Shown here in pieces: positions 46,678-64,000 of a stretch of 64,000 bases of DNA. The position numbers were made by a program, and so were the translations under genes. This DNA is from an uncultured Bacteroidota bacterium (GTDB lineage Bacteria > Bacteroidota > Bacteroidia > Bacteroidales > DTGW01): assembly GCA_963701015.1 (NCBI GenBank), contig OY969556.1:3628424-3692423 (forward strand), given 5' to 3'. Within the stretch, counting starts at the first letter, position 1. Every line of letters begins with the position of its first letter. The notes beneath the pieces were generated by a model. It saw only the letters and a list, made by a program, of their open reading frames with translations. It made no database searches and was not told the origin of the DNA.

Positions 46678-46708
46678 AAAGCCAGGAATTGATTATGTTT
46701 CTGGCTTT
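46678..46708. terminator. Hairpin between convergent tkt and glycosyltransferase genes
   Basis: AAAGCCAG (46678-46685) pairs with CTGGCTTT (46701-46708), with T-rich sequence after it. Confidence 0.45.
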
Positions 46709-46714
46709 ATCTTT

Positions 46715-47833
46715 TTATAAGGTTTTTACAAAATCTAAAATTGAAGTTGCAAAATTTCCCCATGAAAGCTCTTCTTTCAGATTTATTATATTTTCTTTAA
46801 AGGAATCTTCTAAACTGCTTGAAAAATATTGATTTATTTTCGAAGCAATTTCATTTGCATTGCAATGATTAACAATTAAACCTGTTTTCATATCTTCGAT
46901 ACTTTCTTTCAAACCTCCAACATCCGTAGCTATTAAAGGCACATTAAAATGATATGCTATTGACGTTATGCCACTTTGTGTAGCTGATTTATAGGGCAAA
47001 ACACAAACATCGGCAGCTGAGAAGAAATAAGGCACACGGTTATCGGCTATATAATCGTTAAAAACATAAATATTGGCTTTGTTCCTGGTGTTTAAAATTT
47101 GTAAAAAATATTTGTCAAAACTTCCATAGGTTTCACCTGCAATTACTAATTGATATGAATCATCCAATTTGTTAAAAGCATCAATTAAAATATCCAATCC
47201 TTTATAATCGCGAATAAACCCAAAAAATAATAATGCTTTCTTATTAGTCGGTAAATTCAATATCTTTCGTGCTTCCGCTTTTTCAAACCTTTTTCCAAAA
47301 TGATTATACAATGGATGTTCTCTTTTAATATAGCGTGCTTTTGGTTTAAGTGAAAGCAGGTCGTTTTGAACAACTTCGCTCATAGCAACAAATCCATTGT
47401 TTTGTCTTAAAAAAAACTTGGTAAATGAGCTATCGAAAAATCGTTTTTCATGCGGAATAACATTATCTAAAATGGTAATAATTTTCGTTTTTTTGGGAAT
47501 CAACATCGCAACTGTTCCTAAGGATGGGCCAAAGTAGGACATCCAAAATTTCATAATTAAAATATCCGGATCAAATTTTTGAATTGATTTAGCTGTTTTA
47601 TACCATGAAAATGGATTTAATGTATCAAGAATTTCTAATGCGGGAACTGCATCTGCAGTTTCATCATCGGTTACCATTTGGGTTTTCCCCGGAAATAAAA
47701 ATTCAGGATATTGTCGTGTAAAGGTAAATGCTTTTATTTCATGTTCTTTTTCAAATTCCCTGAAAAGAGAAGCATTAAATTGTGCAATTCCTCCGCGATA
47801 GGGATAAAAAGTTGAAAGGTAAGCAATACGCAT
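46715..47833 (-). CDS. Glycosyltransferase, GT4-like (GT-B fold)
   Basis: Probable ATG 47833 (MRIAYLSTFYPYRGGIAQF...). C-terminal sugar-donor region (ADVCVLPYKSATQSGITSIAYHFNVPLIATDVGGLKESIEDMKTGLIV). Confidence 0.75.
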   Translation of the reverse strand: MRIAYLSTFYPYRGGIAQFNASLFREFEKEHEIKAFTFTRQYPEFLFPGKTQMVTDDETADAVPALEILDTLNPFSWYKTAKSIQKFDPDILIMKFWMSYFGPSLGTVAMLIPKKTKIITILDNVIPHEKRFFDSSFTKFFLRQNNGFVAMSEVVQNDLLSLKPKARYIKREHPLYNHFGKRFEKAEARKILNLPTNKKALLFFGFIRDYKGLDILIDAFNKLDDSYQLVIAGETYGSFDKYFLQILNTRNKANIYVFNDYIADNRVPYFFSAADVCVLPYKSATQSGITSIAYHFNVPLIATDVGGLKESIEDMKTGLIVNHCNANEIASKINQYFSSSLEDSFKENIINLKEELSWGNFATSILDFVKTL

Positions 47834-47892
47834 AAATTTAATTTTAGAGTCAAGAATCAAGAGTCAGGTACAATGAACAAATTATTGTATTC

Positions 47893-48984
47893 TTATTTAC
47901 TTTGAAGTAGTTTTTTGATATTTTCAAAAACTATATCTTCCGAAATGTCAAGCATACAACTTCGATCGCGCTTACAGGTATTGCCGTAATAGCAATCGCA
48001 ACCTGAAGTTGGTTCGACTATTATACCATTATTATATAGGTAAAATTCATTTCGGTTAAAAATGTTATTCATTAAAACCATTGGTATTTTTAGGGCAGTA
48101 ACTATATGCATCATCATTGAAACCTGGGTAACAACCAAATCGCAATTTGATGTTAAAGCCATAAATTCTTTTAAGGAATAATGCCCCGGATAATAAGCAC
48201 CGCTTTCTTTAGCCAAAAATAAATTATTACTGTCTTCAGCAGCTCCTCCTAAAAGAACAGGATAGAAATTATGATTAATTAAAAGCTTAATTAATTTTAT
48301 CCAATAATCATTTGGCCATAAACGGGTTGTCCAACGTGCCCCGCAACCGGTATTTAAACCAATAACATATTTATTTTCTGCTTTACTTTTTAAGCTTTTC
48401 CATTTATCAGCCAAATCCTTTTCTATATTTAAAACATAAGGCTCATCATCAAATTTCAAATGACATATCTCAAAAATTTCTTCAAGGTAATTTTTAGTAT
48501 TTTCTTTCGAAATATTATCAAACAAGCCGGTAATAAGCTTATGTTCGGCATTGGGTGTGGCAATTCCCAAATGGTGATTTTCCCAAATATACCCATATTT
48601 TTCAGTAGCAGTTACATCTTTAAGCAAACTGCAAGCTTCAGTTTCCTTATCGAGGTTAATGGCAATATCAAACTTCATATTTTGAATTGCATATACCGAT
48701 GCAAAATCAAATTTATAAATTGTATTAACATGGTTTGCAGGCACAACATCAGGAGAATGGGTCAACCAGGAAATATGACAATTGGGATAAAGTTTACGAT
48801 AACGTACTAATAAAGGTGTAGTTCGTATTACATCACCAATTGCACCTAATTTAATAATGAGAATTCTTTTACTTATTGGAATGTACTCATCACAACTTGA
48901 ACAAATTTTATTTCGCAACTTATTTGGGTTGCAAGGAATATGCCCTTTAAAATATATACAATCAAACTTTACTTTTTCTATCAT
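47893..48984 (-). CDS. Glycosyltransferase family 9 (heptosyltransferase-like) with Cys-rich terminal extensions
   Basis: 363 aa. ILIIKLGAIGDVIRTTPLL and VIGLNTGCGARW...PVLLGG are typical of GT9. Extra cysteine clusters at the N-terminus (C9, C18, C28, C31) and the C-terminus (CDCYYGNTCKRDRSC). Confidence 0.65.
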   Translation of the reverse strand: MIEKVKFDCIYFKGHIPCNPNKLRNKICSSCDEYIPISKRILIIKLGAIGDVIRTTPLLVRYRKLYPNCHISWLTHSPDVVPANHVNTIYKFDFASVYAIQNMKFDIAINLDKETEACSLLKDVTATEKYGYIWENHHLGIATPNAEHKLITGLFDNISKENTKNYLEEIFEICHLKFDDEPYVLNIEKDLADKWKSLKSKAENKYVIGLNTGCGARWTTRLWPNDYWIKLIKLLINHNFYPVLLGGAAEDSNNLFLAKESGAYYPGHYSLKEFMALTSNCDLVVTQVSMMMHIVTALKIPMVLMNNIFNRNEFYLYNNGIIVEPTSGCDCYYGNTCKRDRSCMLDISEDIVFENIKKLLQSK

Positions 48985-49152
48985 TCACTTACTATATAAT
49001 ATGGCAAAGCTAATGGTTCGATTACGAATTTGCAAAAACAAAAAAGGTTTTTAGACTGAAATCTAGTTGAAATTCAGATGATTTTTAAAAAAATGGGAGA
49101 ATTCTTAATTAAATAGTTAATGAAAAGGGTAATAATGCAAGTCAATTTTTAT

Positions 49153-50007
49153 TTACCATCCTCCAAAAGTGCTAAAACTTTCTTTTATAAAATGCGATTT
49201 AGCCCTGATAATTAAAACAGGAATTGGCGATTTGCTAATCATTTGTTGTGCTTCACCACCAATTATAAAATCTGTAATGCTTTCACCGCTTTCGTTTATA
49301 ATTGAAATTAATTCAGCGCCAACATTTTCAGAATACTTTAAAACCTGGTTAATTGGGTTATTCCCAATTAAGGAACCTGTAACATAAGGAATGTCCTTCG
49401 ATTTTAAATAATTACATATTTGAGCTGAATAAGCAGCTAAACGATTAACTATTCGCTTACTGTTTGATGAAGTTACCGTTACCACATGTACTTCGGCATT
49501 GAATAATTGAGCCAGCATTGATGTATAAACAACTTTTTGACGTGACTCAACAACAAAATCTATTGGCAAAACAATTTTTGAAATTGAATTAGGTACAGGT
49601 AGCTGACGAATAGTAATAACAGGACGTGAAGTTGCTGAAACCATTCTATAAGCATTACTTCCAATAAATAATTCTTCGAAACCCGATGCGCCATGTGTTG
49701 ATGCAACAATTAAACTATCGCTAAAAGCTTCGGCCTGACTAACAATTTCCTGATATACTTTTCCTTTTTTAATTATATATGTAAGTTCTGAACCATTTGG
49801 AATAGAATTTTTGTACTTATCCAAAAGTTTTTTAAAATTTTTTTCAGCATTTCTGTTTTCTTCATCCGTTATACTCGGAACATCTGATTTTTTTAAAACA
49901 TATACCATCTGTATTTTCACAGGAGTATGCTTAGCAATTAATATCGCCAAATCAAGACCTTTATATGCATCAGTTGAAAAATCTAGAGGTACAATGATAT
50001 TTTTCAT
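49153..50007 (-). CDS. Tandem-domain universal stress protein (UspA family)
   Basis: Probable ATG 50007 (MKNIIVPLDFS...). Two Usp-like halves (IVPLDFS.../ILPIDFV..., STHGASGFEELFIGSNA). Confidence 0.75.
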   Translation of the reverse strand: MKNIIVPLDFSTDAYKGLDLAILIAKHTPVKIQMVYVLKKSDVPSITDEENRNAEKNFKKLLDKYKNSIPNGSELTYIIKKGKVYQEIVSQAEAFSDSLIVASTHGASGFEELFIGSNAYRMVSATSRPVITIRQLPVPNSISKIVLPIDFVVESRQKVVYTSMLAQLFNAEVHVVTVTSSNSKRIVNRLAAYSAQICNYLKSKDIPYVTGSLIGNNPINQVLKYSENVGAELISIINESGESITDFIIGGEAQQMISKSPIPVLIIRAKSHFIKESFSTFGGW

Positions 50008-50287
50008 TTCAACAGAAATAACTTTTTTTTCCACTTTTAAGTACATTTATTCATTAGCTAAAATAATGAAAATAAATTAAAAAAAAGATTTAACTTCATA
50101 ATTCAATGGATTAAGTGTAAATTCATTTTTTTTTAGCGTTAAATAAATTCTAATTTGAATTCTAAAGTTCGATTTTAACTAAAAAATTTAAAGAATTTTC
50201 CCGCAATCGAATTAAATGAGAAAAAATGTGTTATTTATTAGCGTAAGTGTAAATTATACATTTTATATTAATTTTCTACTTAATGTC

Positions 50288-50436: not shown

Positions 50437-53400
50437 ATGATGAAAAAGTTAACATTTTTAATCGTTTTCCTGTTTAGTCTTACGCAAATTTTTGCACAAG
50501 ATAGAACTATTACAGGAAGTGTGGTTGACGAAACCGGAGCAACAATGCCCGGTGCAACAGTTTCTCTTAAAGGAACCCAAAAAGGTACAGTTACTGATAT
50601 TAATGGCAAATATTCCATTACAGTACCTGAATCAGGTTCGATATTAGTTATTTCTTATGTTGGATATGCTCCAAAAGAAGTTCCTGTTGGTGAAAGCAAT
50701 ACAATTGATGTAAATTTAAGTGCCGACGTAAAATCGCTTGATCAGATTGTTGTTGTAGGATATGGTGTTCAGAAGAAAAGTCTGGTAACCGGTGCAATTT
50801 CAAAAATTGATGCCAAAGAACTTTCCGAAGCTCCGGTTCAAAGAGTTGACGAAGCTTTACAAGGCAAAACAGCAGGGGTTTTTATGGCACAATCTTCCGG
50901 TTCACCTGGTAGTGGAATGAACATTAAAATTCGTGGTGTTAGTTCAAATGGTACCAATGGTCCTCTTTTCATTGTAGATGGTGTTAAAACAGGTTCCATA
51001 GATTATTTATCACCTAGTGACATTGAATCGATGGAAGTACTTAAAGATGGTGCATCCTCTGCAATTTATGGTACTGAAGGGGGTAATGGGGTTATTATAA
51101 TTACTACAAAAAAAGGTACAAAAGGAAATACACAGGTAAATTATTCTATGAACTACGGCATACAACAAGTATCACATCAAATACCTGTTATGAATGCCCA
51201 ACAGTTTATTGATTATCAGAAACAGGCTTATCGCTGGGAACATTTAAAAAATGCAAGTGATTCAACCAGGAATTTAAAGAACTATCAAAATTGGAATTCA
51301 TATTTCGCTGGAACTAATATGGAAGCTCAACAAGTTGATACAACTGGCGCAGGTATAAATTGGCAAAACCAGATATTCCAAAAAGCACCAGTTGTTGAAC
51401 ATAACTTATCATTTAGTGGTGGTAATGATAATGGTAGTTATTTTTTAAGTGCCGGTTATCTTAATCAAAATGGTATAGTTGGAGGTTCACAAAGCAATTA
51501 TACCCGTTATTCTTTCCATTTTAATGGTGAAGAAAAGGTGAAAAAATGGCTGACTGTTGGAAGCAATGTTTCCTATACAAAATCATTACGACATGTTTTA
51601 AATGAATCGAATGAATTTGGCGGAATTGTTACCGATGCTATATTCTTTGATCCTACGGTTCCGATTCATTACGGTAAAGATACTACCAGCCTTCCCGGAT
51701 TTGTTCAGGGAAATTCAACAGCAGAAAATAATTTAATTAAGAATAAAAATGGTGAATTTTATGGCCTTTCAAAATACACTTCAGGTGAAGCCGCAAACCC
51801 ATTGGCACAAATAGCAAATACCTATAATACTCAAAGTATTGATAAAGTTTTAGGTGATATTCATGCTGATGTGAATATTCTTAAAAGCCTTAAGTTCACG
51901 ACCAGGCTAGCTATGGATTATTCATTGGAATACGATGATATTTTCTCTCCTACTTATTATTATAACGGACAAAATTCTGTAACAAATGATACTTTAAGTT
52001 CAGTTCAAAATAAGTATATAAAATATTATAAGTATGCTTTTGACAACTTCTTTACTTATAATCAGACCTTTGGTGAACATGGCATTGATGCTACTTTAGG
52101 TTGTACTTACGAAAATTACAGACCCCAATACATTGATGTTACTGGTTATTTGGTTCCAGAAAATAATTACAATTTTGCTTATTTATATGATACTAATAAC
52201 GGTTTGGCAAATCATATTCCAAAAGTTAGTGGTGGTTTGGGAACTTCAACCGATGCTCAATATGGTCAGGAATATGCAAATATTCAACAATCGTATTTTG
52301 GGCGTTTAAATTATAATTATTCTGAAAAATATTTGGTTGAAGCTACTATAAGACGAGATGGATCATCATTATTTGGAACAGCGAACAGATTTGTTGTTTT
52401 CCCATCATTCTCACTGGGATGGAATATTGGTAAAGAAGATTTCCTGAAGGACAATGCTTCATTCCTGAATAATGCCAAGTTACGTTTTAGCTGGGGACAA
52501 AACGGTAGTGACCAAGCTCTGTATGCGTATGCATATACTTCATTAATGACCAATGGACATAATTATACCGATGCAAATGGTAATAATCTTGCTGGTTCAG
52601 TTCCTTTAAATCCTGGTAATGCTACATTGCAATGGGAAACCAGCCAGCAATTAGATGGTGGGATTGATTTAGCTATGTTAAACAATAAGGTAACATTTTC
52701 AGCCGATTATTATGATAAGCAAACAAAAGGCCAGTTAGCTACAAACAATCAGGTTCCATACTATTTAGGGTATAACACAATCCCTTATGTAAATAGCGGG
52801 AATGTTGATAATAAAGGGATTGAACTTGAATTGGGCTATCGTGAATCAGAAGGTGATTTTAAATATTCAATCAATGCAAACGCTTCATTTGTTAAAAATA
52901 AAGTTACAGCTTATGGTGATTCAGGAGCTTACCAAATGGGATCAAATGTTGGAACCCAAGGTTCAGTTGCCCGTTATCAGGCTGGACAAGCTGCATGGTA
53001 TTTTTATGGTTACCAGGCTGATGGAATTTTCCAAACTTCACAGGAAGTTCAAAATTACAACGTTGGTATAGTGAATGGAAAGGTTTTGACTGATGCAAAC
53101 GGTAACCCAATTATTAACCCAACCGATGCTCAAATAGGAACCGGGAAAAGAAAATTGATACAACCAACTGCTGTTGCAGGAGACGTAAAGTATGCTGATT
53201 TAAATAAAGATGGTTCAATATCAACTGCTGATGAAACAAATATTGGAACGCCATGGCCGGCAATGACCTATGGTCTGAATTTAGCTTGCGAATATAAAGG
53301 ATTCGATTTCAGTGCATTTTTCCAGGGTGTTGAAGGAAATAAAATTTTCTTTGCTGTAACTCGCTCTGACAGGACAAATTATAATAAGCCTGAATTCTAT

Positions 53401-53751
53401 TATAGCAATGCATGGAACGGACCAAATTCAGGAGGATCGATGCCCAGGGCAACCATTGATAATTCACCTGCCAACAATTATTACAGTTCCTTAAATGTTT
53501 ATAATGGTAGTTATTTACGATTAAAAAATATTACACTTGGATATACGCTACCTGTTGATTTAACTAAGAAAATTGGAATCAGCAAATTCAGGATTTATAC
53601 TTCAGCTCTTAATTTATTGACATTTACAAAATATCCGGGATCGGATCCTGAAATTGGACAAGATACTAATGGCAATCAGGCTTTTGGTATTGACAGGGGA
53701 TTATACCCATCATCAAAGACATTTAATTTTGGTGTAAATGTTACATTTTAA
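50437..53751 (+). CDS. susC: SusC/RagA-family TonB-linked outer-membrane transporter
   Basis: 1104 aa. N-terminal carboxypeptidase-regulatory-like domain (ITGSVVDETGATMPGATVSLKGTQKGTVTDINGKYSI), a plug (IESMEVLKDGASSAIYGTEGGNGVIIITTKKG) and C-terminal ...FNFGVNVTF. Confidence 0.9.
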   Translation: MMKKLTFLIVFLFSLTQIFAQDRTITGSVVDETGATMPGATVSLKGTQKGTVTDINGKYSITVPESGSILVISYVGYAPKEVPVGESNTIDVNLSADVKSLDQIVVVGYGVQKKSLVTGAISKIDAKELSEAPVQRVDEALQGKTAGVFMAQSSGSPGSGMNIKIRGVSSNGTNGPLFIVDGVKTGSIDYLSPSDIESMEVLKDGASSAIYGTEGGNGVIIITTKKGTKGNTQVNYSMNYGIQQVSHQIPVMNAQQFIDYQKQAYRWEHLKNASDSTRNLKNYQNWNSYFAGTNMEAQQVDTTGAGINWQNQIFQKAPVVEHNLSFSGGNDNGSYFLSAGYLNQNGIVGGSQSNYTRYSFHFNGEEKVKKWLTVGSNVSYTKSLRHVLNESNEFGGIVTDAIFFDPTVPIHYGKDTTSLPGFVQGNSTAENNLIKNKNGEFYGLSKYTSGEAANPLAQIANTYNTQSIDKVLGDIHADVNILKSLKFTTRLAMDYSLEYDDIFSPTYYYNGQNSVTNDTLSSVQNKYIKYYKYAFDNFFTYNQTFGEHGIDATLGCTYENYRPQYIDVTGYLVPENNYNFAYLYDTNNGLANHIPKVSGGLGTSTDAQYGQEYANIQQSYFGRLNYNYSEKYLVEATIRRDGSSLFGTANRFVVFPSFSLGWNIGKEDFLKDNASFLNNAKLRFSWGQNGSDQALYAYAYTSLMTNGHNYTDANGNNLAGSVPLNPGNATLQWETSQQLDGGIDLAMLNNKVTFSADYYDKQTKGQLATNNQVPYYLGYNTIPYVNSGNVDNKGIELELGYRESEGDFKYSINANASFVKNKVTAYGDSGAYQMGSNVGTQGSVARYQAGQAAWYFYGYQADGIFQTSQEVQNYNVGIVNGKVLTDANGNPIINPTDAQIGTGKRKLIQPTAVAGDVKYADLNKDGSISTADETNIGTPWPAMTYGLNLACEYKGFDFSAFFQGVEGNKIFFAVTRSDRTNYNKPEFYYSNAWNGPNSGGSMPRATIDNSPANNYYSSLNVYNGSYLRLKNITLGYTLPVDLTKKIGISKFRIYTSALNLLTFTKYPGSDPEIGQDTNGNQAFGIDRGLYPSSKTFNFGVNVTF

Positions 53752-53773: not shown

Positions 53774-55381
53774 ATGAAAACAAAAAAAATATTATTATGT
53801 ATGCTGGCATTTATATCAATGATGTATGCCTGCAAAGAAAAAGATTTGGATATAAATTCCACCCGACAAAATGCAAGTACATATTATCAATATGACGACC
53901 ATTTACAAAATGCAATTGAAGGTGCATACTCATGGCTGCAATTGGAATCGCAGAGATGGGGCGCCAATGGTTGGCTTTGGGGTTCACTTGCCGGAGATGA
54001 AGCTTTTACCGGTGGAGGAAGTGCAGTTGACCAACTTGGATACCAGGAAACCAATACACATACTTTAACTCCCGATGCTCCTGATATTACTGCTTTTTGG
54101 CAAACATTTTTCCAGGGAATTAACAGTTGTAATGAAATTTTACTCAATGTTGATTCTACAAGAGATGCAGCATCGCAACAAGCGTATGCTCAAGGCGAAT
54201 TTCTGGAAGCATTTTACTATTTTTACATGGCAAGAGCATATGGTGGTTTACCAAATTTAGTTGCATTAAAAACTACGCCTTCAACCCAGGTTAAAAGGTC
54301 AACCTTAGATGAAACTTATTCTTTTATTGAAAAATTATTAATTAGTTCAATTAGTAATGGAATACAACAGCGCACCAATGGTGTTGACCCTGCAAACGGA
54401 TGGGCAACTTTAGGAAGCGCTGAAGCTTTATTAGGGAAAGTTTATATGTATCATGCCACTTATATTGACGAAAGTGGAACACAGCATAATAACAAACAGT
54501 ATTATACTTTGGCAATTAAATATTTATCGTTGGTTGCTAGTGATCCTAATTATTCTTTAGATCCTGAATTTTGGCATGTATTCAGCCCAATCAATCGTCA
54601 TGGTATTGAATCGATTTTTGAAGTGAATTTTTCAATACAATCCAATCCAAATGCATCAGGAGATGCATTGCCAACCCTTTGCGGTCCTCGCACTGTTGCT
54701 AACCAACAAATAAATGATACCATTCAATATGGCTGGGGTTTCAATGCCCCTCGTATGGCGTTGGTTGAATTGTTTAAAAGCGAAAATGATATGGTGAGGT
54801 ACGATGCAACTATTTTAGATACTGCATCATTACAGGCTATACACGATTTGTGGTTGGGAAAACACGATGTTTTAAACTGGGACATACATACCCCAAAAGA
54901 AACAGAAGGAGGATTTTTTGGCAAGAAAAAATATTCCGATGTTCGTACAATTGCATCAGCCTATGGCACAAATTCGAACCCTGCAATATATTTAAGGCTT
55001 GCCGATGTTTATCTTTTATTGGCCGAAGCTTACAATTTAACCGGTGATGATGCAAATGCCCAAACGTATTTAAATAAAGTTCGTGCAAGGGTTGGAAGAG
55101 CTGCTTCCTCTTCAACGGGGGCTGCTTTGCTTGCAGATATTAAACTTGAAAGACATTTGGAACTTGCTTTGGAAGGTGATAGATTTTTCGACCTGGTTCG
55201 TTGGGGCGATGCCAGTACGGTTTTAGTTGCTAACCCATTGTTGCCAACTATTATTGATTATAACGATCAAAATATTGGTTCGGGACCAAAAGCTATTAAT
55301 CATGGGCTTTTTCCAATTCCACTTTCTGAAATTAGCAGAACATCAGGCTCTTTAGTACTAACGCAAAACCCTGGTTATTAG
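53774..55381 (+). CDS. susD: SusD/RagB-family nutrient-binding lipoprotein
   Basis: 535 aa with lipobox MYAC, immediately after susC. C-terminal RHLELALEGDRFFDLVRWG signature. Confidence 0.85.
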   Translation: MKTKKILLCMLAFISMMYACKEKDLDINSTRQNASTYYQYDDHLQNAIEGAYSWLQLESQRWGANGWLWGSLAGDEAFTGGGSAVDQLGYQETNTHTLTPDAPDITAFWQTFFQGINSCNEILLNVDSTRDAASQQAYAQGEFLEAFYYFYMARAYGGLPNLVALKTTPSTQVKRSTLDETYSFIEKLLISSISNGIQQRTNGVDPANGWATLGSAEALLGKVYMYHATYIDESGTQHNNKQYYTLAIKYLSLVASDPNYSLDPEFWHVFSPINRHGIESIFEVNFSIQSNPNASGDALPTLCGPRTVANQQINDTIQYGWGFNAPRMALVELFKSENDMVRYDATILDTASLQAIHDLWLGKHDVLNWDIHTPKETEGGFFGKKKYSDVRTIASAYGTNSNPAIYLRLADVYLLLAEAYNLTGDDANAQTYLNKVRARVGRAASSSTGAALLADIKLERHLELALEGDRFFDLVRWGDASTVLVANPLLPTIIDYNDQNIGSGPKAINHGLFPIPLSEISRTSGSLVLTQNPGY

Positions 55382-55526: not shown

Positions 55527-55534
55527 TATTTTTG
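55527..55534 (+). promoter_or_regulatory. -7 promoter box TATTTTTG
   Basis: TAnnTTTG match 31 nt upstream of the ATG at 55565. It overlaps the ORF-track TTG start at 55532, which argues for the 55565 start. Confidence 0.4.
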
Positions 55535-55564
55535 AACTTAATTATTAACTTAAATTATTCGATT

Positions 55565-56572
55565 ATGAAGAAATTACTTTTACTATGTGCAGGAGCTGTA
55601 GTGGCAACATCTATGTCATTTGCAGGTTTAACACCAGCTCTTACTGTAAATCCAACTACCGGAACTGTTGTACCTGATGGTACAGTTGCTACTGATGGTA
55701 CTGAAGCCTGGACAGCAACCTGGACAACACTTACTGATGCAAAAGCTGCTAATACAACCAGTGGTATGACAGCTAAATTCCAGATTACTTATAACCAAAA
55801 GTATTTGTGGGTAGCTTTGGAACAAGACAACAACACCGAAGTTGACTCATCATACTTAGATGACCCATGGCAGAGAGATTGTTTTGAAGTTATGATTGGT
55901 ATGGATACCAATGATTTTTATAACAATGGTAAATACAAAGAAGGTGACTTACAGTTCAGGATGGACAGAGGTCCTTCAGGTATTCAATCACCTTTTGTTG
56001 ATTCACTAGATCAGTCAAGTGGTAAGACCAAAGCGGTTGATCCATTTTGTTTAAGTGATGCAGGTGCTGTTGCACAAAACAATGCTGATTTTAAAGTTGG
56101 CCAAACCGATGCTGGAACTGGTTTTACACAAGAATGGCAATTCCCCTGGAAAGGTTTAGTTGCTACAATGAAAGATTCAGGTAAATTCTTAGGCAACTAT
56201 TTCAAAATGGAAATGCAGGGTGCTGATTGTACAACTCCTGGTAAAAATGCTGGTAGAAGCCAACAACAGTTTTGGCATAACAATTCAGATAATGAATACC
56301 AGGATACAAGAACATTTTCTTTGGTTTATTTATCAGAAAAAGTTGGTGTAAATACAGTTAATCCTGTATCTAATACATTTAAAGTATATCCTTCAGTAAC
56401 ATCTGATGTATTGAAATTTTCACAAACTGTGAACAATGCTATTATTTACAATGCTGCTGGTCAGGAAGTTGAAGTTTTAAGAAATGTAAACCAGGTTAAT
56501 GTAAGTGATTACAATGCTGGTGTATATTTTGTTAAAGCTGGTAACCAAACTGCAAGATTTATCAAAAGATAA
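55565..56572 (+). CDS. CBM9/DOMON-like sugar-binding protein with T9SS C-terminal sorting domain
   Basis: About 335 aa from MKKLLLLCAGAVV. KFQITYNQKYLWVALEQ...DCFEVMIGMD is CBM9-like. C-terminal FKVYPSVTSDVLKF...GVYFVKAGNQTARFIKR is a T9SS CTD. Confidence 0.6.
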   Translation: MKKLLLLCAGAVVATSMSFAGLTPALTVNPTTGTVVPDGTVATDGTEAWTATWTTLTDAKAANTTSGMTAKFQITYNQKYLWVALEQDNNTEVDSSYLDDPWQRDCFEVMIGMDTNDFYNNGKYKEGDLQFRMDRGPSGIQSPFVDSLDQSSGKTKAVDPFCLSDAGAVAQNNADFKVGQTDAGTGFTQEWQFPWKGLVATMKDSGKFLGNYFKMEMQGADCTTPGKNAGRSQQQFWHNNSDNEYQDTRTFSLVYLSEKVGVNTVNPVSNTFKVYPSVTSDVLKFSQTVNNAIIYNAAGQEVEVLRNVNQVNVSDYNAGVYFVKAGNQTARFIKR

Positions 56573-56589
56573 TTAGCAAATTAATTATA

Positions 56590-56619
56590 AAAAAGCTGCC
56601 AAATGGCAGCTTTTTTTTT
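56590..56619 (+). terminator. Intrinsic terminator
   Basis: AAAAA-GCTGCC-AAAT-GGCAGC-TTTTTTTTT. Confidence 0.75.
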
Positions 56620-56814: not shown

Positions 56815-59073
56815 ATGAAATCAGATATTTCTACAAAAAAGGATGTTTCAAAAATAAGTGCCTTCCGTAACACACTGTTAAATGCTATTCTGGTACTTAT
56901 TCCAATATTAATACTGGTAGTTTTTGAATTATTTCTAAGAATGGTAAATTATGGCGATGATTTACGATTATTTATCCCTTCTAAAGTTCACACTGGTTAT
57001 TTAGAAATTAACCAGAAAGTTGGCAAACGATATTTTACCAAATTGGGAAACACAAAACCAGCCTATGATATTTTTCTAAAAAATAAACCCGATAGCTGTT
57101 ATCGCATATTTGTAATGGGAGGTTCAGCTGCCATGGGCTTTCCTTTCGAAATTGGAAATTCATTTTCAAGAATTTTGACCAGCCAATTGCAGGACGCTTT
57201 CCCTCATAAAAAAATTGAAATAATTAATACTGCAATGGCGGCAGTTAATAGTTATACATTATTAGATTTAACCGATGAAATACTTGCTCAAAAACCAGAT
57301 GCAATTGTTATTTATGCCGGGCATAACGAATATTACGGAGCACTTGGCGTAGGATCGGTTGAAAATGGTGGAAATTTCAGATGGTTAAAAATGCTTCATT
57401 TAAAACTAATACATCTAAGAACTTACCAGTTAATTCAACATATAATAGCTTCTATAACCAGGAAATTTTCACCCGAAGCCCAAATAAAAAGCACTGAAAC
57501 ATTAATGGCTCGTATAGTTAAAGACAAAGAAATTATATATGGTTCAAAGCTTTATAACGATGGAATTGAACAATTTAGTGAAAACATTAATGCAATTCTT
57601 ACTAAAGCAAAAAAGGCTGGAGTAACAGTGCTTATAAGCGATTTAGTAAGCAATATTCATGATACCAAACCATTTAAATCAGTTGCAACACAAAAATTTC
57701 CAAAAGCCGAAGATGTATTTGAAAATGCACAAAAACTTGAAAAGTCGGGAGATTATGAAAATGCCAAAAAAGAATATTATTTGGCAAAAGACTTGGATTG
57801 CATACGCTTTAGGGCATCCGAAGATTTAAATAAAGCCATCATAGAACTTGGCAAAAAAAATAATGCGATTATAGTTCCAATGGAATATAATTTTGAAAAA
57901 AAATCACCTCATGGATTTATAGGTGATAATTTAATGTTGGAGCATTTGCATTGCAATATTGATGGCTATTTTTTAATGGCAGATGTATTTTTTAATGCAT
58001 TTCGACATGCCAAATTAATAGATAAAAATTGGGATACAACACTAATTAAACCTTCAAAATATTACAGGGATAACTGGGGATTCACTCCTTTAGACAGTTT
58101 GGTTGGCGATTTGATTATTAAAAAATTAAAAGATGGATGGCCATTTAAGTCAGATGCAACCATGAATTTGTTTAAGTTCACTTATAAGCCTAAATCCTAT
58201 GAAGATTCTATTGCTTTGAACTGCATTAAATATGCCAATGTAAGAATTGACAAAATGCACGAAAAAATGGCCTTGCATTATGCAAAACAAGGTAAATATT
58301 ATAGCGCATTTAAGGAAGATTATTCTTTAATTAAATGCTATCCGTTTAATAGTGATTTGTATATTGACGGTTCCGATTACCTTTTAAGGGCAAATGAAAA
58401 ACAAAAAGCCTGTGAGCTTTTAAAAACAATGCCAGGATTAGATACAACATATTATGCACTTGCTAAATTGGGCGAAATTTATCTGGATCTGAAACAATAC
58501 AAAAATGCTGTTACCTATTTGGAAAAAGCACTAAAATTTACAAAACAGAAAGATGCTAAAGAACCTTTTTTGGTGCTTATGTATAATGCATATACAGGAG
58601 TTGGTAATAAAGATATGGCCAACCAAATATTGAAAAGAATAAAAAAGATTAATCCTAATTTTACTTTGTCCGAAGCCAATTCAGCCAATATAGGAATTGT
58701 TGTTTTATCTGCAACAGCAATAAATTATATTGATATGGCCAAAAAATCTGATTCCGAAGGAAATTATGATAATGCACTTGAATTATTATATAAAGCGAAT
58801 AGAATAAAAGAAAGTCCATATATTAATTTTCTCATCGGGAATATTTTATTTGAGAAAAAAGATATAAATGCCCTTTACTATTACGAAAAAGTATATCCTG
58901 AAACTCCGAAAGACCCGGATTTACTACGAAAATTGAGCTTTCTGTACATCATGCAAGGAAATAAAGTGAAAGCGCTAAAAATGCGCAATGAATTAAATGA
59001 AGTTGTTACAGATAAAACCATCATCAATAATTTAACAAATTTAATAGCAAAAATGAAAAACACTAAAAAGTAA
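56815..59073 (+). CDS. Membrane-anchored SGNH-like hydrolase/acyltransferase domain protein with C-terminal TPR repeats
   Basis: 752 aa with an N-terminal TM helix. SGNH-like blocks (RIFVMGGSAAMG, VIYAGHNEYYG, LEHLHCNIDGY). The C-terminal half has TPR-like repeats (GKYYSAFKEDYSLIK, GEIYLDLKQYKNAVTYLEKALK, GNYDNALELLYKA). Confidence 0.5.
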   Translation: MKSDISTKKDVSKISAFRNTLLNAILVLIPILILVVFELFLRMVNYGDDLRLFIPSKVHTGYLEINQKVGKRYFTKLGNTKPAYDIFLKNKPDSCYRIFVMGGSAAMGFPFEIGNSFSRILTSQLQDAFPHKKIEIINTAMAAVNSYTLLDLTDEILAQKPDAIVIYAGHNEYYGALGVGSVENGGNFRWLKMLHLKLIHLRTYQLIQHIIASITRKFSPEAQIKSTETLMARIVKDKEIIYGSKLYNDGIEQFSENINAILTKAKKAGVTVLISDLVSNIHDTKPFKSVATQKFPKAEDVFENAQKLEKSGDYENAKKEYYLAKDLDCIRFRASEDLNKAIIELGKKNNAIIVPMEYNFEKKSPHGFIGDNLMLEHLHCNIDGYFLMADVFFNAFRHAKLIDKNWDTTLIKPSKYYRDNWGFTPLDSLVGDLIIKKLKDGWPFKSDATMNLFKFTYKPKSYEDSIALNCIKYANVRIDKMHEKMALHYAKQGKYYSAFKEDYSLIKCYPFNSDLYIDGSDYLLRANEKQKACELLKTMPGLDTTYYALAKLGEIYLDLKQYKNAVTYLEKALKFTKQKDAKEPFLVLMYNAYTGVGNKDMANQILKRIKKINPNFTLSEANSANIGIVVLSATAINYIDMAKKSDSEGNYDNALELLYKANRIKESPYINFLIGNILFEKKDINALYYYEKVYPETPKDPDLLRKLSFLYIMQGNKVKALKMRNELNEVVTDKTIINNLTNLIAKMKNTKK

Positions 59074-59259
59074 ATTAGGTTGTTCATTACATTGTCATTG
59101 CGCCAGTATATTTCATTTATTTCGAAAATATTTAGGACTAAAATAGTTGTAGCAATTTCAATTTAAAATACCTATTTTAGTCAATATTTTTAGCCTTTTG
59201 TTAAAGCAATAACTATAAATATTTAATTAAACAGCTTATAGGTAATTAACAAATATATT

Positions 59260-61116
59260 ATGAAGAATTTTAATATATCAAATACCAAATGGGCAATAAT
59301 TTTAGCCTATATAACTTTAATCTTCCTTTATTTATTATATGTTGTACAACCTGAACTATACTATCATTTACAACAACCCGGATTTAATTCGAATTGGAAT
59401 TTCTTTAAAGAATTTTATATTTATCCCGGTGGAATTGTTCAATATTTTGCCAATTTTTTATCTCAATTTTTCATATTCGGATGGGCAGGATCACTCATAA
59501 TTATTTATATAGCTATTTCATTAATGTCATTCTTTTACAAAATTTTAAATTCGTATAAAAAATCAGATTACAATTATATATTGATGTTCATTCCTTTTAT
59601 AGTATTGGTTGCTTTGATGAATGATTATAATTTCCCTTTTGTTGTTTCTATTAAATTACTTTTTGTATTTATATCGATAAATATTTTTAATTATGCTATA
59701 AATAAGAAATTAAATCATTATACAATATATTTGATATTGTCTCCGATTTTATATTACTTAACAGGAAGTGGATTTTTCCTTATTTTTTCAATAACTGCAA
59801 TCATTTCAGCATTTATTTTATATAATAATATGCGCAGTAACTTACTTTTTATAATCACATCGTTGTTATATACAATAATTATAGATTATATTTCATTTAA
59901 ATTTATTTTTAATATTTCACCTGCCAATACATATTTTTCATTCCTGCCTGACGATTTTGCAATTTATTTTAAATATGAACCTGGCTATTTGTTCTATATA
60001 TTTTGTTATACACTTCCAGTAATGGCTCTGATATATTTTATTTATTTCAGAATAATTAAAAAATCCACGGATACAATATCGGTCAATTTTAAAGGATCTT
60101 CAAATTTGCTAATAACTTCAATATTATCAATATTTCTAATATTAGCATCTGTATTGCTTCATTATATTACATTTAATCAACATAAAAAAAATGTTATCCT
60201 TGCCGATTATTATTGTTATAACAATGACTGGGACAAAACAATTAGCTTAGCAAAATCTGATCCACAATATGATTTATTTATAAACTTTAATTACAACCGT
60301 GCAATAGATAACTCAGGTCATTATTTAGATTCATTTTTTGACTATCCGCAAAAAATTGGAATGGACATACTCAATCCTGATAAAATAAATGTGCCACAAT
60401 TAGCAATGATTACAAGCGATTATTACTATGATTTAGGTTATGTAAGCGAAGCACAGCATTGGGCTTATGAAGCCCAAACAAGTAATCCTTATGATGTTAG
60501 GGTCCTAAAACGATTAGTAATTACAAACCTTATATATAATAATATTATTGGTGCTAAAAAGTATTTAAATTTGTTAAAAGGGAATTTATTTACTGGCGAT
60601 TTTGTAAATAAATATATGCCATATATAAATGATACTTCGTTAATTACAAAAGATAAAGAAATATCTGAAAAAAGATTGATTATGCCAATAACTGGTACAC
60701 TATCTAAATCACTTACAATAAGATTTAATGAATTAATTAATAAGAATGAAAATAATAAAAAAGCTTTTGAACACCTGCAAATATCATATTTATTAGATTC
60801 AAAGCTTGAACCATTTATGCACAATTTATTACAAGCCACCAAATTTTATAATAATTTACCAAAATTATATGAGCAGGCAATTTTATCGTATATATATGTA
60901 ACTGATCCCAGGTTATTGCAAAATTTTAAGATAAACCGTGAAAGTTTTGATACATTTTCCGACTTTGTTAAAATTTTACAATCAAGTAATCATAATTTAA
61001 AATCGGCCAAAATATCCCTTGATAAATATAAAAATACTTATATGTATTATGTTATGTTTTTAAGTCCAAAAGTTACTAAAGTAGTATTGATTAAAAGAGG
61101 TGATCCAAATTTATAA
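59260..61116 (+). CDS. Large polytopic membrane protein with soluble TPR-like C-terminal half (resembles the Bacteroidota DUF6057 family)
   Basis: 618 aa. About 10 hydrophobic helices in the first ~300 residues, then a helical-repeat region (YYCYNNDWDKTISLAK, YYYDLGYVSEAQHWAYEA). The DUF6057 assignment is from memory, not a search. Confidence 0.45.
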   Translation: MKNFNISNTKWAIILAYITLIFLYLLYVVQPELYYHLQQPGFNSNWNFFKEFYIYPGGIVQYFANFLSQFFIFGWAGSLIIIYIAISLMSFFYKILNSYKKSDYNYILMFIPFIVLVALMNDYNFPFVVSIKLLFVFISINIFNYAINKKLNHYTIYLILSPILYYLTGSGFFLIFSITAIISAFILYNNMRSNLLFIITSLLYTIIIDYISFKFIFNISPANTYFSFLPDDFAIYFKYEPGYLFYIFCYTLPVMALIYFIYFRIIKKSTDTISVNFKGSSNLLITSILSIFLILASVLLHYITFNQHKKNVILADYYCYNNDWDKTISLAKSDPQYDLFINFNYNRAIDNSGHYLDSFFDYPQKIGMDILNPDKINVPQLAMITSDYYYDLGYVSEAQHWAYEAQTSNPYDVRVLKRLVITNLIYNNIIGAKKYLNLLKGNLFTGDFVNKYMPYINDTSLITKDKEISEKRLIMPITGTLSKSLTIRFNELINKNENNKKAFEHLQISYLLDSKLEPFMHNLLQATKFYNNLPKLYEQAILSYIYVTDPRLLQNFKINRESFDTFSDFVKILQSSNHNLKSAKISLDKYKNTYMYYVMFLSPKVTKVVLIKRGDPNL

Positions 61117-61127
61117 CACAACAAATC

Positions 61128-62615
61128 ATGAACAAAAAATATAAATTCAAATTACTGGTATTAGCTTTATTTGCGCTAATATTAAGTAATTGCAGCAAGA
61201 CCATAAAGGAATATTCGATTGTAAATAAACTCCCTTTAATTTTCCCTGATTATAATAATGTAGTAATTCCGCCCAATATAGCTCCTTTAAATTTTTATAT
61301 CAATGATTCGTCTATTAATTATCATGTTGAAATATATTCGAAAAATGGAGCTAAGCTAACAATTGACCAATCGTCGCCAAAAATTGAAATACCAATTGAA
61401 AAATGGCATAATTTAATTGAAAATAATAAAGGCAATAATTTATATATAGATATATTTTCAAAAAATAAAAATTGGATAAAATATAAATCCATTGTAGATA
61501 GTATTGCCAGTGAACCAGTCGATAGTTATTTGGCTTACAGATTAATAAATAATGCCTATATATTTTGGAAAAAAATGGGCATATATCAACGTAATTTGGA
61601 AAACTTTGATGAATCGCCAATATATGTAAATAATACAACCAGAAACGGATGCGTAAATTGCCACTCATTTTGTAATGGAAATCCAAATAAAATGTCGATG
61701 CATTTCAGAGATGTACAGGCTGGAACAATGATATTTTCGGATAAAAAACTTGAAAGGCTTAATACTAAAACAAAGCAAACTATTTCTCCATTTGTATATC
61801 CATCTTGGCATCCAAGTGGCAATTATGTTGCTTATTCAATAAATAAAATAAATTTGTTTTTCACTTCAAATCCAACTTCATTAAGTGAAGTGTCTGATTT
61901 AATTTCGGATATTGTTGTTTATGATGTAAGAAAAAATACTATAATAACATCTCCAAAAATTTGTACTACCAGCAGAGAAAATCTCCCAACCTGGTCTCCT
62001 GACGGAAAATGGTTATATTATATAAGTGCTCCTGCTGTAAAAAAAGGAAACGATAATAGCAGATTAAATGTAAAATACAGCTTACTACGCATATCGTTTG
62101 ATACTACAAATAATTCATGGGGAAATGTTGATACTGTTTTATCATCACGTCAAACTGGTATGAGTATTACATTTCCAATTATATCTCCCGACGGCAGATA
62201 TCTTCTTTTTGGAATGATGGACCATGGTTATTTCGCTGTCTTCGATAAAAATAGTGACATTTATATTTTAGACTTGCAAACAAAACAATACCGAAAATTA
62301 AATTTAAACAGCAATAGTACGGATAGTTATCATGTTTGGTCACAAAATGGAAGATGGATTGTTTTTAGCAGTAAACGACTTGATAATATTTTTTCACGTC
62401 CATTCTTTTCTTATTTCGATAAAAATGGAAAAGAACATAAACCATTTCTTATGCCTCAGGAAGATCCATTATTTTATGATTCTTTTATGAAAAATTATAA
62501 CCGACCAGAATTAGTAACCGGGAAAATAAATTTAAATCCTCGTCAGATAAGAGATTTAATTTATAGTCCAGCCAAAGATGTTACTTTCGATTCTATTAAC
62601 TATGAAAATAATTAA
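61128..62615 (+). CDS. Lipoprotein with a single CXXCH heme-binding motif and a TolB/PD40-like beta-propeller
   Basis: 495 aa with lipobox LSNC. CVNCH is encoded at 61650-61664. Propeller-type repeats WSPDGKWLYYIS, ISPDGRYLLFG, WSQNGRWIVFSS. Confidence 0.5.
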   Translation: MNKKYKFKLLVLALFALILSNCSKTIKEYSIVNKLPLIFPDYNNVVIPPNIAPLNFYINDSSINYHVEIYSKNGAKLTIDQSSPKIEIPIEKWHNLIENNKGNNLYIDIFSKNKNWIKYKSIVDSIASEPVDSYLAYRLINNAYIFWKKMGIYQRNLENFDESPIYVNNTTRNGCVNCHSFCNGNPNKMSMHFRDVQAGTMIFSDKKLERLNTKTKQTISPFVYPSWHPSGNYVAYSINKINLFFTSNPTSLSEVSDLISDIVVYDVRKNTIITSPKICTTSRENLPTWSPDGKWLYYISAPAVKKGNDNSRLNVKYSLLRISFDTTNNSWGNVDTVLSSRQTGMSITFPIISPDGRYLLFGMMDHGYFAVFDKNSDIYILDLQTKQYRKLNLNSNSTDSYHVWSQNGRWIVFSSKRLDNIFSRPFFSYFDKNGKEHKPFLMPQEDPLFYDSFMKNYNRPELVTGKINLNPRQIRDLIYSPAKDVTFDSINYENN

Positions 62616-62621
62616 AATAAA

Positions 62622-64000
62622 TTGAAGAAATTTACACTTATTATAATACTGAACTTAGTAGGTTTTATAAGCATTATAGCAGTTACAAATCCATTTTTGC
62701 ATAGCTCAGGAACCAAAATAATAAATGGCTCAGGCAACGAAGAGGTCTTAAATGCTGTCAATTTTGGGAATTGGATGGTAATGGAAGGTTATATGATGAA
62801 TACTTCAGATTTCGCTTCTACTCAACATGAAATTAAACAAAGAATTGAATCATTAATTGGAGACTCACTTACAAATGTTTTCTATAAAGCCTGGCTATGG
62901 GATTATATATCCCAAACTGATATTGATTCATTAAAAAAATGGGGATATAATTCAATTCGTATTCCAATCCATTATGAATATTTTGCAACACTTGGTTCTC
63001 CAACACAATGGGATAGTTTAGGATTTACAATTTTAGACAGCTTAGTAAAATGGTGCAAAAAAGATAGTATATATGCCATAATTGATTTACATGCTGCTCC
63101 TGGTGGGCAAGGGCAAAATGCTTCAATATCCGATTATGATTCTACCAAATATTCACTTTGGCAAAGCCCAACCGACAAAAGTTTAACAATTGCTTTATGG
63201 ACAAAAATTGCAACACGATACTCCCATGAAAAATTTGTTGGTGGTTACGACCTGATTAACGAACCTAATTGGTCATTGCCAAATAATACTGATTTGCGAA
63301 ATTTATATGGAAGTATAACTACAGCGATTCGCCAGGTAGATACAAGTCATATAATATTTATCGAAGGAAATTGGTTTGCAACCGACTTTACAGGATTAAC
63401 GCCTGCCTGGGATAAAAATATGGTATATAGTTTTCACAAGTACTGGTCACATAATAACCAGGCAACCATTCAATGGATGTTGGATATTCGGAATAAAAAT
63501 AATACACCAATTTGGTGCGGTGAAACAGGAGAAAATAGCAATTACCATTTCACTAATGAAATGGAATTATTTAATAAATTTGATATTGGTACATCATTCT
63601 GGCCATACAAAAAGTTTGAAAGTATAAACTCATTGGTCTCTTCAAAATGGCCTTATGGATACTCTCAGCTACTAAATTATTGGCAAAAAGGATCGAATAT
63701 GCCATCAAAAATTGAAGCATTTAATACGCTTATGCAATTGGCTGAGAGCAGAAAAATACAAAATTGCAAAACCAATCGTGATGTTTTATATGCGCTATTT
63801 CAACAACCCGGAAATAGAAAAACACAGCCTTTCGCCCCAAATATTATTCCTGGAGCTATTGCTGCTACAGATTTTGATTTAGGAACTTACCTAAATTCAT
63901 ATAAAAATACTCCTATTGAAAATCTTCAATCCGATTCAGCTTATTCTGCATGGAATTCAGGATGGGCTTATAGAAATGATGCAGTAAGTATTGAAGCATG
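62622..64000 (+). CDS. GH5 glycoside hydrolase (cellulase/mannanase-type), 3' end outside the window
   Basis: Not in the ORF track because it has no stop in the window. TTG 62622 gives MKKFTLIIILNLVGF..., open to 64000. GH5 catalytic motifs DLINEPNW (acid/base) and WCGETGEN (nucleophile). Confidence 0.8.
   Translation, partial: MKKFTLIIILNLVGFISIIAVTNPFLHSSGTKIINGSGNEEVLNAVNFGNWMVMEGYMMNTSDFASTQHEIKQRIESLIGDSLTNVFYKAWLWDYISQTDIDSLKKWGYNSIRIPIHYEYFATLGSPTQWDSLGFTILDSLVKWCKKDSIYAIIDLHAAPGGQGQNASISDYDSTKYSLWQSPTDKSLTIALWTKIATRYSHEKFVGGYDLINEPNWSLPNNTDLRNLYGSITTAIRQVDTSHIIFIEGNWFATDFTGLTPAWDKNMVYSFHKYWSHNNQATIQWMLDIRNKNNTPIWCGETGENSNYHFTNEMELFNKFDIGTSFWPYKKFESINSLVSSKWPYGYSQLLNYWQKGSNMPSKIEAFNTLMQLAESRKIQNCKTNRDVLYALFQQPGNRKTQPFAPNIIPGAIAATDFDLGTYLNSYKNTPIENLQSDSAYSAWNSGWAYRNDAVSIEA

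Follow-up and report, generated by a model that had tools for sequence, protein, structure and literature searches.

A conserved gene pair encoding a DUF6057 membrane protein and a CXXCH-bearing propeller lipoprotein, found in a Bacteroidota glycan-utilisation locus

The described protein whose fold comes closest to that of the lipoprotein considered here is TolB of the Tol-Pal system, a periplasmic protein with an N-terminal domain and a six-bladed propeller of PD40 repeats; the Tol-Pal operon also includes a tetratricopeptide repeat (TPR) protein (CpoB/YbgF) and inner-membrane partners. The lipoprotein is the product of gene 3, the last of three consecutive genes in a 64,000-nt stretch of contig OY969556.1 from an uncultured Bacteroidota bacterium. 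This whole stretch is called the window below, and all coordinates are positions within it unless another locus is named. Gene 1 (56815-59073, 752 aa), gene 2 (59260-61116, 618 aa) and gene 3 (61128-62615, 495 aa) are open reading frames on the + strand, with 186 nt between gene 1 and gene 2 and 11 nt between gene 2 and gene 3. A first-pass annotation, made from the letters of the DNA, had grouped them as a three-gene envelope module. We report that the conserved unit is the pair formed by gene 2 and gene 3 and not the trio, and that gene 1 belongs to a separate family that occasionally adjoins the pair. Gene 3 is like TolB in joining an N-terminal domain to a six-bladed PD40 propeller, and it is unlike TolB in being a lipoprotein, in having a beta-sandwich at its N-terminus and in carrying an invariant CXXCH motif. 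It also differs from TolB in that one genome holds several diverged copies, of which every one has a partner of its own from the DUF6057 family (the family of gene 2), and in lacking adjoining tolQRA or pal genes; no tol or pal gene was present among the neighbours of the window pair or in the loci of its relatives.

Gene 2 can be set beside two further groups of described proteins. Like the GT-C glycosyltransferases with TPR tails (TMTC, PMT_2-TPR), it is polytopic and continues into a TPR-like domain that is predicted to lie on the non-cytoplasmic side, and, again like these types, it has a pair of short helices in its first external loop. Unlike GT-C enzymes (PMT, ArnT, STT3/PglB and others), it has no conserved Asp or Glu in loop 1 and no sequence or PDB fold match to them. 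With the TPR chaperones CcmI and NrfG and with substrate-dedicated CcsBA it has in common a membrane-anchored, presumably periplasmic TPR domain encoded beside the gene of a CXXCH protein, and it differs from these in its approximately nine membrane helices and in the absence of a WWD motif, of a conserved histidine and of homology to Ccm or Ccs proteins. As to gene 3, a heme c or metal site is combined with a periplasmic beta-propeller in NirS and thiocyanate dehydrogenase, as it may be in gene 3; both matched the gene 3 model with fold E-values of 1e-7 to 1e-6, which reflects general propeller similarity (TM-score ~0.3). In NirS the cytochrome c domain is helical and separate, and the propeller, which holds heme d1, has eight blades, whereas the gene 3 motif lies inside a beta-rich body. 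Cytochrome f, a c-type cytochrome built mainly of beta-sheet, has a C-A-N-C-H site, in which Asn is the third residue, and its sixth heme ligand is neither a His nor a Met side chain. It is not a propeller but part of the b6f complex, and it is not known to be homologous to gene 3. In its general logic the pair resembles membrane-tethered periplasmic cytochromes and propeller redox enzymes, but it fits none of the TolB, GT-C, cytochrome c domain, exopolysaccharide-machine or defence families that were tested.

Gene 2 and gene 3 form a conserved pair

Relatives of gene 3 were collected in an alignment scan over one genome per species, and the best 80 loci were analysed for gene order. Such relatives were present in at least 597 reference genomes and were spread over six phyla (Bacteroidota, KSB1, Latescibacterota, Calditrichota, WOR-3 and Planctomycetota). 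In 71 of the 80 loci gene 2 immediately preceded gene 3, with both genes on one strand, giving 79 pairs in all, and four of the nine loci without this adjacency were contig ends. The gap between the two genes ranged from -8 to 110 nt in annotated contigs. An exhaustive search with the N-terminal/CXXCH region of gene 3 returned 1117 clusters at 50% identity, nearly all of which had the same layout of ~500 aa. The two families also diverged together: pairwise identities of gene 2 proteins followed those of gene 3 proteins (r = 0.84, 3073 comparisons), and nearest neighbours agreed for 52 of the 79 pairs. Several metagenome-assembled genomes (MAGs) supplied two separate pair loci, and tandem arrays held as many as five pairs in L058 and three in L076. 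Most of these arrays were old, with gene 2 copies at 23-39% identity; the copies in L032 and L070 were much closer to each other.

Whether gene 1 belongs to this unit was addressed by a reciprocal synteny test, in which the 80 loci baited with gene 3 were compared with 80 metagenome loci baited with gene 1. Gene 1 adjoined the pair in 4/80 gene 3-baited loci (L051, L006, L070 and L073), and the pair, or a part of it, was found within 10 kb of gene 1 relatives in 5/80 gene 1-baited loci. Two further gene 1 homologs were picked for sharing a contig with the pair; one of these showed the order CBM9-gene 1-gene 2-gene 3 (CBM, carbohydrate-binding module), and the other a convergent arrangement of CBM9, gene 1, gene 3 and gene 2. 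Since gene 1 rarely adjoins the pair in either direction of the test, the trio in the window is a juxtaposition of two units that both recur in glycan-rich neighbourhoods, and not a fixed module. The synteny that the first-pass annotation had set as a test of its module therefore holds for gene 2 with gene 3 and fails for gene 1 with the pair.

Hidden Markov models (HMMs) from Pfam and NCBIfam placed neither gene 2 nor gene 3 in a known pathway, an unrelated one included. Pfam catalogues DUF6057 as a family without known function. A search of the literature on DUF6057 and on CXXCH-propeller lipoproteins yielded no paper or named system that matches, in agreement with the earlier remark that a heme-motif propeller with such partners corresponds to no system that can be named. 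Models of the PADLOC collection of defence systems did not match gene 2 or gene 3, and gene 1 gave a generic TPR match only (E 9e-4); with no PADLOC system match for any of the three genes, anti-phage defence was discarded as a candidate function.

Predicted architecture of the two proteins and the CXXCH motif

Gene 3 starts with a Sec-type lipoprotein signal without a twin-arginine motif, and the lipobox cysteine, Cys22 (61191-61193, +), was invariant in alignment A1 and at least 90% conserved in alignment A3. Because no acidic surface-export signal follows the lipid-modified cysteine, the protein probably faces the periplasm. Its AlphaFold model (predicted local distance difference test score, pLDDT, 95.1) consists of a beta-sandwich followed by a six-bladed propeller of the TolB/tricorn type, and PD40 repeats were recognised by Pfam. 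Close to its N-terminus the protein has a highly conserved segment, IFPDY...PPNIAPLNF. In the fold search TolB was the best match (4pwz, 6pnv and 7mx5; E about 3e-13, with 2.8e-13 for the top hit, TM-score 0.42-0.54), with S9-peptidase and tricorn propellers lower down and NirS and thiocyanate dehydrogenase as generic propeller matches. The score against the TolB equivalog TIGR02800 was 42 bits, below its cutoff of 343.15. The labels PF26549 and PF26550 carried by gene 3 homologs were dismissed as a functional clue, since the domains they stand for, Tricorn_N and Tricorn_2nd, are nothing more than propeller domains. Two relatives of gene 3 had unusual ends: P0393 (694 aa) has an extra C-terminal TPR-like tail, and P0383 (563 aa) is fused to a fragment of asparaginyl-tRNA synthetase and is probably an assembly chimera.

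The sequence CVNCH at residues 175-179 (61650-61664, +) is a candidate site of covalent heme c attachment. All 96 gene 3 copies from the 80 loci and six phyla contained C-x-N-C-H, and each of 71 full-length cluster representatives had exactly one CXXCH. This bears out the first-pass picture of a lipoprotein with a single CVNCH motif and a PD40/TolB-like propeller. An accompanying motif, His192-x-Arg194 (61701-61709, +), was less strict: the Arg was present in 96/96 copies, and 7 copies had Q, A, G or S in place of the His. We estimated from residue frequencies that a CXXCH would arise by chance in about 1 in 1000 proteins of 495 aa, and, judged by this conservation, its presence in every gene 3 homolog examined is not a matter of chance. 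A CXXCH motif in a Sec-exported protein is the feature by which c-type cytochromes are recognised, and gene 3 has it. Gene 3 is therefore probably a c-type cytochrome by this sequence criterion, and we lean, with some reserve, towards the view that it carries a c-type heme.

The neighbourhood of the pair is consistent with this view in a small number of loci. ResB (PF05140) and CcsA (PF01578), which constitute a System II cytochrome c synthase, directly adjoined the pair in L018 (L018:3447-5484), L029 (L029:5827-7892) and L036 (L036:11511-13948), in two arrangements, and were found in 0/80 control loci. By a rough calculation that assumes one such locus per 4-Mb genome, ~0.3-0.4 occurrences would be expected by chance in the flanks searched. 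The same three loci contain the FkbO-like gene that is described below.

Gene 2 matched DUF6057 (PF19529) over profile positions 8-568 of 569, with an E-value of 5.5e-91 and 306.6 bits against a cutoff of 29.8. In its AlphaFold model (pLDDT 90.4, predicted TM-score 0.89), and in keeping with the conservation tables, residues 1-304 (59260-60171, +) make up a membrane domain of ~9 to 10 helices, and residues 307-606 (60178-61077, +) an all-helical TPR-like repeat domain, much as the first-pass annotation had read it (about 10 membrane helices followed by ~300 aa of helical repeats). The charge of the loops implies a topology with the N-terminus inside and nine helices, which would place the repeat domain in the periplasm. 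In conservation tables of 63 and 89 sequences, no acidic or basic residue, His or Cys of the membrane domain was conserved, and Gln69 is its lone conserved polar residue; the conserved polar residues N346, Q364, R472, N499 and E504 all fall in the predicted periplasmic domain. A Foldseek search of the model against the PDB found generic TPR proteins only (E >= 0.07); PDB sequences searched by profile gave no match.

The earlier likening of gene 2 to GT-C transferases did not survive this analysis. Glu32 opens the first periplasmic loop, the one that in GT-C enzymes bears the invariant catalytic Asp or Glu; it was Glu in 32/63 sequences of alignment A2 and in 12/89 genome copies, and neither alignment had another conserved acidic residue within residues 1-304. 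We rejected a GT-C function on the grounds of this missing loop-1 acid, the absence of any match to a GT-C HMM of Pfam and the absence of a GT-C fold match. A heme-handling role was likewise set aside for want of a WWD motif and a conserved His. Because the membrane part shows no catalytic signature, gene 2 is most likely a membrane anchor or docking partner rather than an enzyme.

Surroundings of the pair and of gene 1

In the window, the glycan-utilisation locus begins with a SusC-like TonB-dependent transporter (50437-53751, +; Pfam CarbopepD_reg_2, Plug and TonB_dep_Rec_b-barrel), which is followed by a SusD-like lipoprotein (53774-55381, +; SusD_RagB, E 1.3e-36, and SusD-like_3) and by a CBM9 protein with a C-terminal sorting domain of the type IX secretion system (T9SS) (55532-56572, +; CBM9_1, E 4.7e-10, and Por_Secre_tail, E 1.6e-6). 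An intrinsic terminator lies 3' of the CBM9 gene (56589-56619, +), with the hairpin AGCTGCC-AAAT-GGCAGCT and a subsequent T9 (U9) run; its predicted folding energy was -16.8 kcal/mol (z = -5.3), and 0/200 shuffled sequences were equally stable. At the other end, a GH5 glycoside hydrolase (62622-64000, +, truncated by the end of the window; Pfam Cellulase, E 4e-29) has a possible TTG start at 62622, 6 nt past the stop codon of gene 3. Owing to this short gap, gene 2, gene 3 and the GH5 gene look like a single transcription unit. The 186-nt spacer between gene 1 and gene 2 had no significant structure (z -1.0), and a search of the intergenic regions for known RNA elements gave sub-threshold matches only, which fell on the terminator hairpin. 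The layout given in the first-pass annotation, with three + strand genes between a terminator and a GH5 gene in SusC/SusD surroundings, was thus correct. Across the 9 kb that precede SusC we saw no regulator of transcription of the kind usual for polysaccharide utilisation loci. The region 5' of the SusC and SusD genes (41452-50046) holds housekeeping and envelope genes, which encode a formyltransferase, KAS II, RNase III, a transketolase, GT4 and GT9 glycosyltransferases and a tandem universal stress protein.

Elsewhere, the immediate flanks of the pair were heterogeneous, with CBM9, GH5, GH3 and SusC/SusD genes among them. The order SusC-SusD-gene 2-gene 3-GH3-GH3, with short gaps, was kept in six loci (L054, L057, L060, L061, L074 and L078), and L051 had the order SusC-SusD-gene 1-gene 2-gene 3. 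Genes for CBM9/T9SS proteins, GH5, GH3 or CBM6 stood directly 3' of the pair in some loci, GH5 being the immediate downstream neighbour in 3/59 other cases, and GH26, GH94, GH29 and GH39 genes were found near the pair in annotated contigs. Parabacteroides species also have the pair beside SusC/SusD genes; P. distasonis and P. hominis (L072, L068) are carriers. Because operon-like positions inside SusC/SusD loci recur in this way, a role of the pair in glycan use is plausible.

A different neighbour recurred across phyla. A cytoplasmic protein of ~395 aa that resembles FkbO/Hyg5 was encoded near the pair in 15/80 loci against 2/80 controls, in Bacteroidota, KSB1, Latescibacterota, Calditrichota and Planctomycetota (L003, L009, L011, L012, L018, L024, L029, L036, L063, L064, L066, L071, L076, L079 and L080; also L167). 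It has PF21168 and L-PSP domains and scored 55-128 bits against TIGR04444 (cutoff 325), as a distant relative of the chorismatases would. No such gene is present in the window. In one Bacteroidales lineage, represented by three loci that are related by descent (L164, L165 and L166), the order was DUF1599, a MauE/DoxX membrane protein, a protein of 348-371 aa, DUF6057, gene 3, YitT, Ppnp and ferrochelatase; the MauE/DoxX and ferrochelatase genes there hint at redox or heme functions. In L036 (L036:5984-7905) the pair is closely preceded by genes for a MoxR-type AAA ATPase and for DUF58/vWA proteins, which look like the beginning of the Bacteroides aerotolerance (Bat) operon.

Gene 1 was described in the first-pass annotation as a protein with one membrane anchor, SGNH-like blocks and a long TPR region, and each of these features was recovered; the quoted sequences correspond to SGNH blocks I, III and V. 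A single hydrophobic helix in the translation at about residues 20-41 (56872-56937, +) would serve as an N-terminal membrane anchor, and since Lys/Arg-rich residues precede it, the N-terminus is predicted to be cytoplasmic by the positive-inside rule. The SGNH domain spans about residues 95-395 (57097-57999, +) and is marked by conserved catalytic residues in invariant columns of alignment A4, namely Ser104 (57124-57126), G-H-N-E at 169-172, Glu376 and His379 (57949-57951), all on the + strand. The TPR region covers about residues 470-750 (58222-59064, +); it was matched by TPR_19, TPR_8 and other Pfam families, all between residues 520 and 730, and gave profile hits to TPR proteins of the PDB. 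The score against Lipase_GDSL_2 was weak (26.3 bits, under the gathering cutoff of 32.9), and many of the more than 2534 homologs bear precomputed PF13472 or PF00657 labels. Among 86 family members Ser104 was conserved in 85, and Asn171, Asp/Glu376 and His379 in all 86. Gene 1 thus has the residues by which SGNH proteins are recognised, with the Ser of block I, the oxyanion Asn of block III and the Asp/Glu-x-x-His of block V. The sole solved SGNH structure matched by the family profile was the acetyl xylan esterase 4oap (E 4e-5), and the remaining matches were TPR proteins. Gene 1 is a credible membrane-anchored periplasmic SGNH esterase, predicted from these residues to be active.

Four SGNH blocks with Ser, Asn, Asp/Glu and His are shared by gene 1 with the 4oap esterase and with O-acetyltransferases of the AlgX/AlgJ type. 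Gene 1 is likewise predicted to face the periplasm and stands in a glycan-rich neighbourhood. It differs from these proteins in an insert of ~200 residues between blocks III and V and in its added membrane anchor and ~280-residue TPR tail, and from AlgX/AlgJ also in having no alginate, Pel or cellulose synthase context. The scores of gene 1 against PgaA (22.5 bits, cutoff 366.65) and PrsT (30 bits, cutoff 312.2) came from the TPR region only, and no polysaccharide synthase, co-polymerase or TPR-porin was found near the gene 1 relatives (80 loci) or near the pair. We consequently abandoned the analogy with exopolysaccharide machines that had been drawn for gene 1 (AlgX/AlgJ and AlgK/PelB/BcsC), as it amounts to generic TPR similarity in the wrong gene context. 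Its actual neighbours, over 80 family members, were genes for T9SS cargo, carbamoyltransferase, symporter and TonB-dependent receptor proteins. The gene directly upstream of gene 1 relatives encoded a T9SS C-terminal domain in 21/52 cases and CBM9 in 10/52, as in the window, and this recurrence suggests that the periplasmic esterase is functionally connected to a secreted protein that binds carbohydrate. The T9SS cargo gene before members of the family is on the same strand; in the window the strong terminator separates the two genes. A carbamoyltransferase with a C-terminal membrane region was encoded in 15/80 gene 1-baited loci and a sodium:solute symporter in 11/80, both often directly adjoining gene 1 (L149:2158-4416, L092:181-2085 and similar loci).

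Possible roles of the pair

We propose, with a probability of roughly 0.45, that gene 2 and gene 3 form a membrane-tethered periplasmic heme-propeller complex with a redox or otherwise heme-dependent function that is accessory to glycan handling. In this model, the periplasmic TPR-like domain of gene 2 would dock the gene 3 lipoprotein, for which the extended N-terminal segment of gene 3 (IFPDY...PPNIAPLNF) is a plausible TPR ligand, and docking would tether the heme-bearing propeller at the inner membrane. Each gene 2 protein would form a cognate one-to-one complex with its own gene 3 protein. The heme would give the complex an electron-transfer or other heme-dependent function in the periplasm, and diverged copies of the pair, which in Bacteroidota are often located within glycan-utilisation loci, would serve different loci. 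The apparent co-transcription of the window pair with GH5, behind SusC and SusD, suggests an accessory role with the imported glycan.

A number of observations weigh against this proposal. Heme attachment to gene 3 is deduced from its sequence, and complex formation from gene order and from a co-divergence that is inflated by shared phylogeny. Copies of gene 3 without an adjoining DUF6057 gene exist (L015, L020 and L011), and L066 has four gene 2 copies before one gene 3. The model puts CVNCH on a beta-strand within the body of the propeller and not in a helical cytochrome c domain; no cytochrome c family of Pfam matched gene 3 even at E <= 10, and no cytochrome family of NCBIfam at E <= 0.1. 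With His192 not universal, the protein has no obvious universal second axial ligand. ResB/CcsA adjoined the pair in just 3/80 loci, two of which come from related MAGs, and the 64-kb window contains no cytochrome c maturation gene. As to the glycan link, SusC lay within 10 kb of the pair in 20/80 loci against 9/80 in the control, an enrichment of ~1.6-fold per Mb over an imperfect control, and after this comparison simple SusC proximity was downgraded as evidence for a glycan role. The pair is also found in non-glycan contexts (L164-L167) and in phyla without SusC/SusD.

The main rival to heme c is a metal or cysteine site, in which C-x-N-C-H...H-x-R would bind Zn, Fe or Cu, or form a redox cysteine pair or a catalytic surface. 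Gene 3 would then be a lipoprotein with a TolB-like function in binding or scaffolding, and the pair a structural tether or chaperone of the envelope. We consider this somewhat unlikely. The predicted strand that holds CVNCH is followed by a strand with His192 and Arg194, and a regular hairpin would put C175, N177, H179, H192 and R194 on one face and C178 on the opposite one. The spacing C-x2-C-x13-H is like that of zinc-binding sites, of which examples with similar spacings are known, and, besides the missing cytochrome c family match, gene 3 comes closest in fold to TolB, which is not a redox protein. Yet heme c attachment is classically recognised by just such an exact and invariant CXXCH in a protein exported by Sec, 7 copies lack the His192 on which a Cys2His2-type site would depend, and ResB/CcsA are next to the pair in three loci and present in none of the 80 controls. 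Moreover, AlphaFold models are built without cofactors, which makes the local strand assignment weak evidence. If heme is present, gene 2 could instead be a dedicated specificity factor for its attachment to gene 3, comparable to CcmI, NrfG or a substrate-dedicated CcsBA. A membrane protein with a predicted periplasmic TPR domain, encoded directly before a CXXCH protein, would suit such a function, and there are precedents for heme lyases and chaperones that are dedicated to one substrate and encoded next to it. We regard this as improbable: gene 2 has none of the Ccm/Ccs hallmarks listed at the outset (WWD, a conserved histidine, homology), a chaperone would not usually duplicate and diverge strictly one-to-one with every paralog, and ResB/CcsA, where they adjoin the pair, come in addition to gene 2.

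The pair might also be a redox unit that has nothing to do with glycans, such as a respiratory (quinone-linked) or detoxifying cytochrome, its position behind SusC/SusD being incidental. This would accord with its occurrence in phyla without SusC/SusD and in the contexts of L164-L167, with the ~1.6-fold figure for SusC, with MauE/DoxX and ferrochelatase in L164-L166 and CcsBA adjacent in three loci, and with the fact that the most specific recurrent neighbour is the FkbO/Hyg5-like protein (15/80 vs 2/80). Nevertheless, the operon-like insertion of the pair between SusD and GH3 is conserved in several lineages, GH5 is tightly linked to the pair in the window and in three further loci, the large number of diverged paralogs is in line with diversification of substrates, and the gene 2 membrane domain offers no conserved polar residue except Gln69 for a quinone site; we therefore think a role outside glycan use quite unlikely. 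Least probable in our view is the three-gene envelope module of the first-pass annotation, in which an SGNH-TPR protein, a GT-C-like protein and a heme lipoprotein would modify or secrete a glycan in the manner of the alginate, Pel and cellulose machines. All three genes are indeed contiguous on one strand in the window, the order CBM9-gene 1-gene 2-gene 3 is found in a few relatives (including L051 and L144), and gene 1 is a credible esterase. The synteny tests, with gene 1 adjacency to the pair in 4/80 and 5/80 loci against gene 2-gene 3 adjacency in 71/80, have largely refuted this module, and in addition gene 2 failed the GT-C tests, no synthase, co-polymerase or TPR-porin lies nearby, and matches to PgaA, PrsT and BcsC were confined to TPRs and far under their cutoffs.

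Returning to the proposed heme-propeller complex, a bolder extension, which we rate as rather unlikely, is that gene 3 founds a new class of c-type cytochromes, with heme carried on a TolB-type propeller and with copies locked to their DUF6057 partners, that performs redox chemistry on imported glycans or couples to the quinone pool within polysaccharide utilisation loci. To our knowledge, these loci are currently held to work by hydrolysis and lysis alone. They are among the best-studied systems of the Bacteroidota, and the cassette described here lies inside several of them. The unit to study is now corrected to two genes, and gene 1 goes with the T9SS-secreted CBM9 proteins. Parabacteroides carriers that have the pair beside SusC/SusD make the question genetically tractable. 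The pair family is widespread and strongly constrained, and if its heme is real, it would provide a new structural context for heme c, on a propeller instead of a helical domain, a first functional partner for DUF6057 and a periplasmic redox step in glycan degraders that are largely anaerobic.

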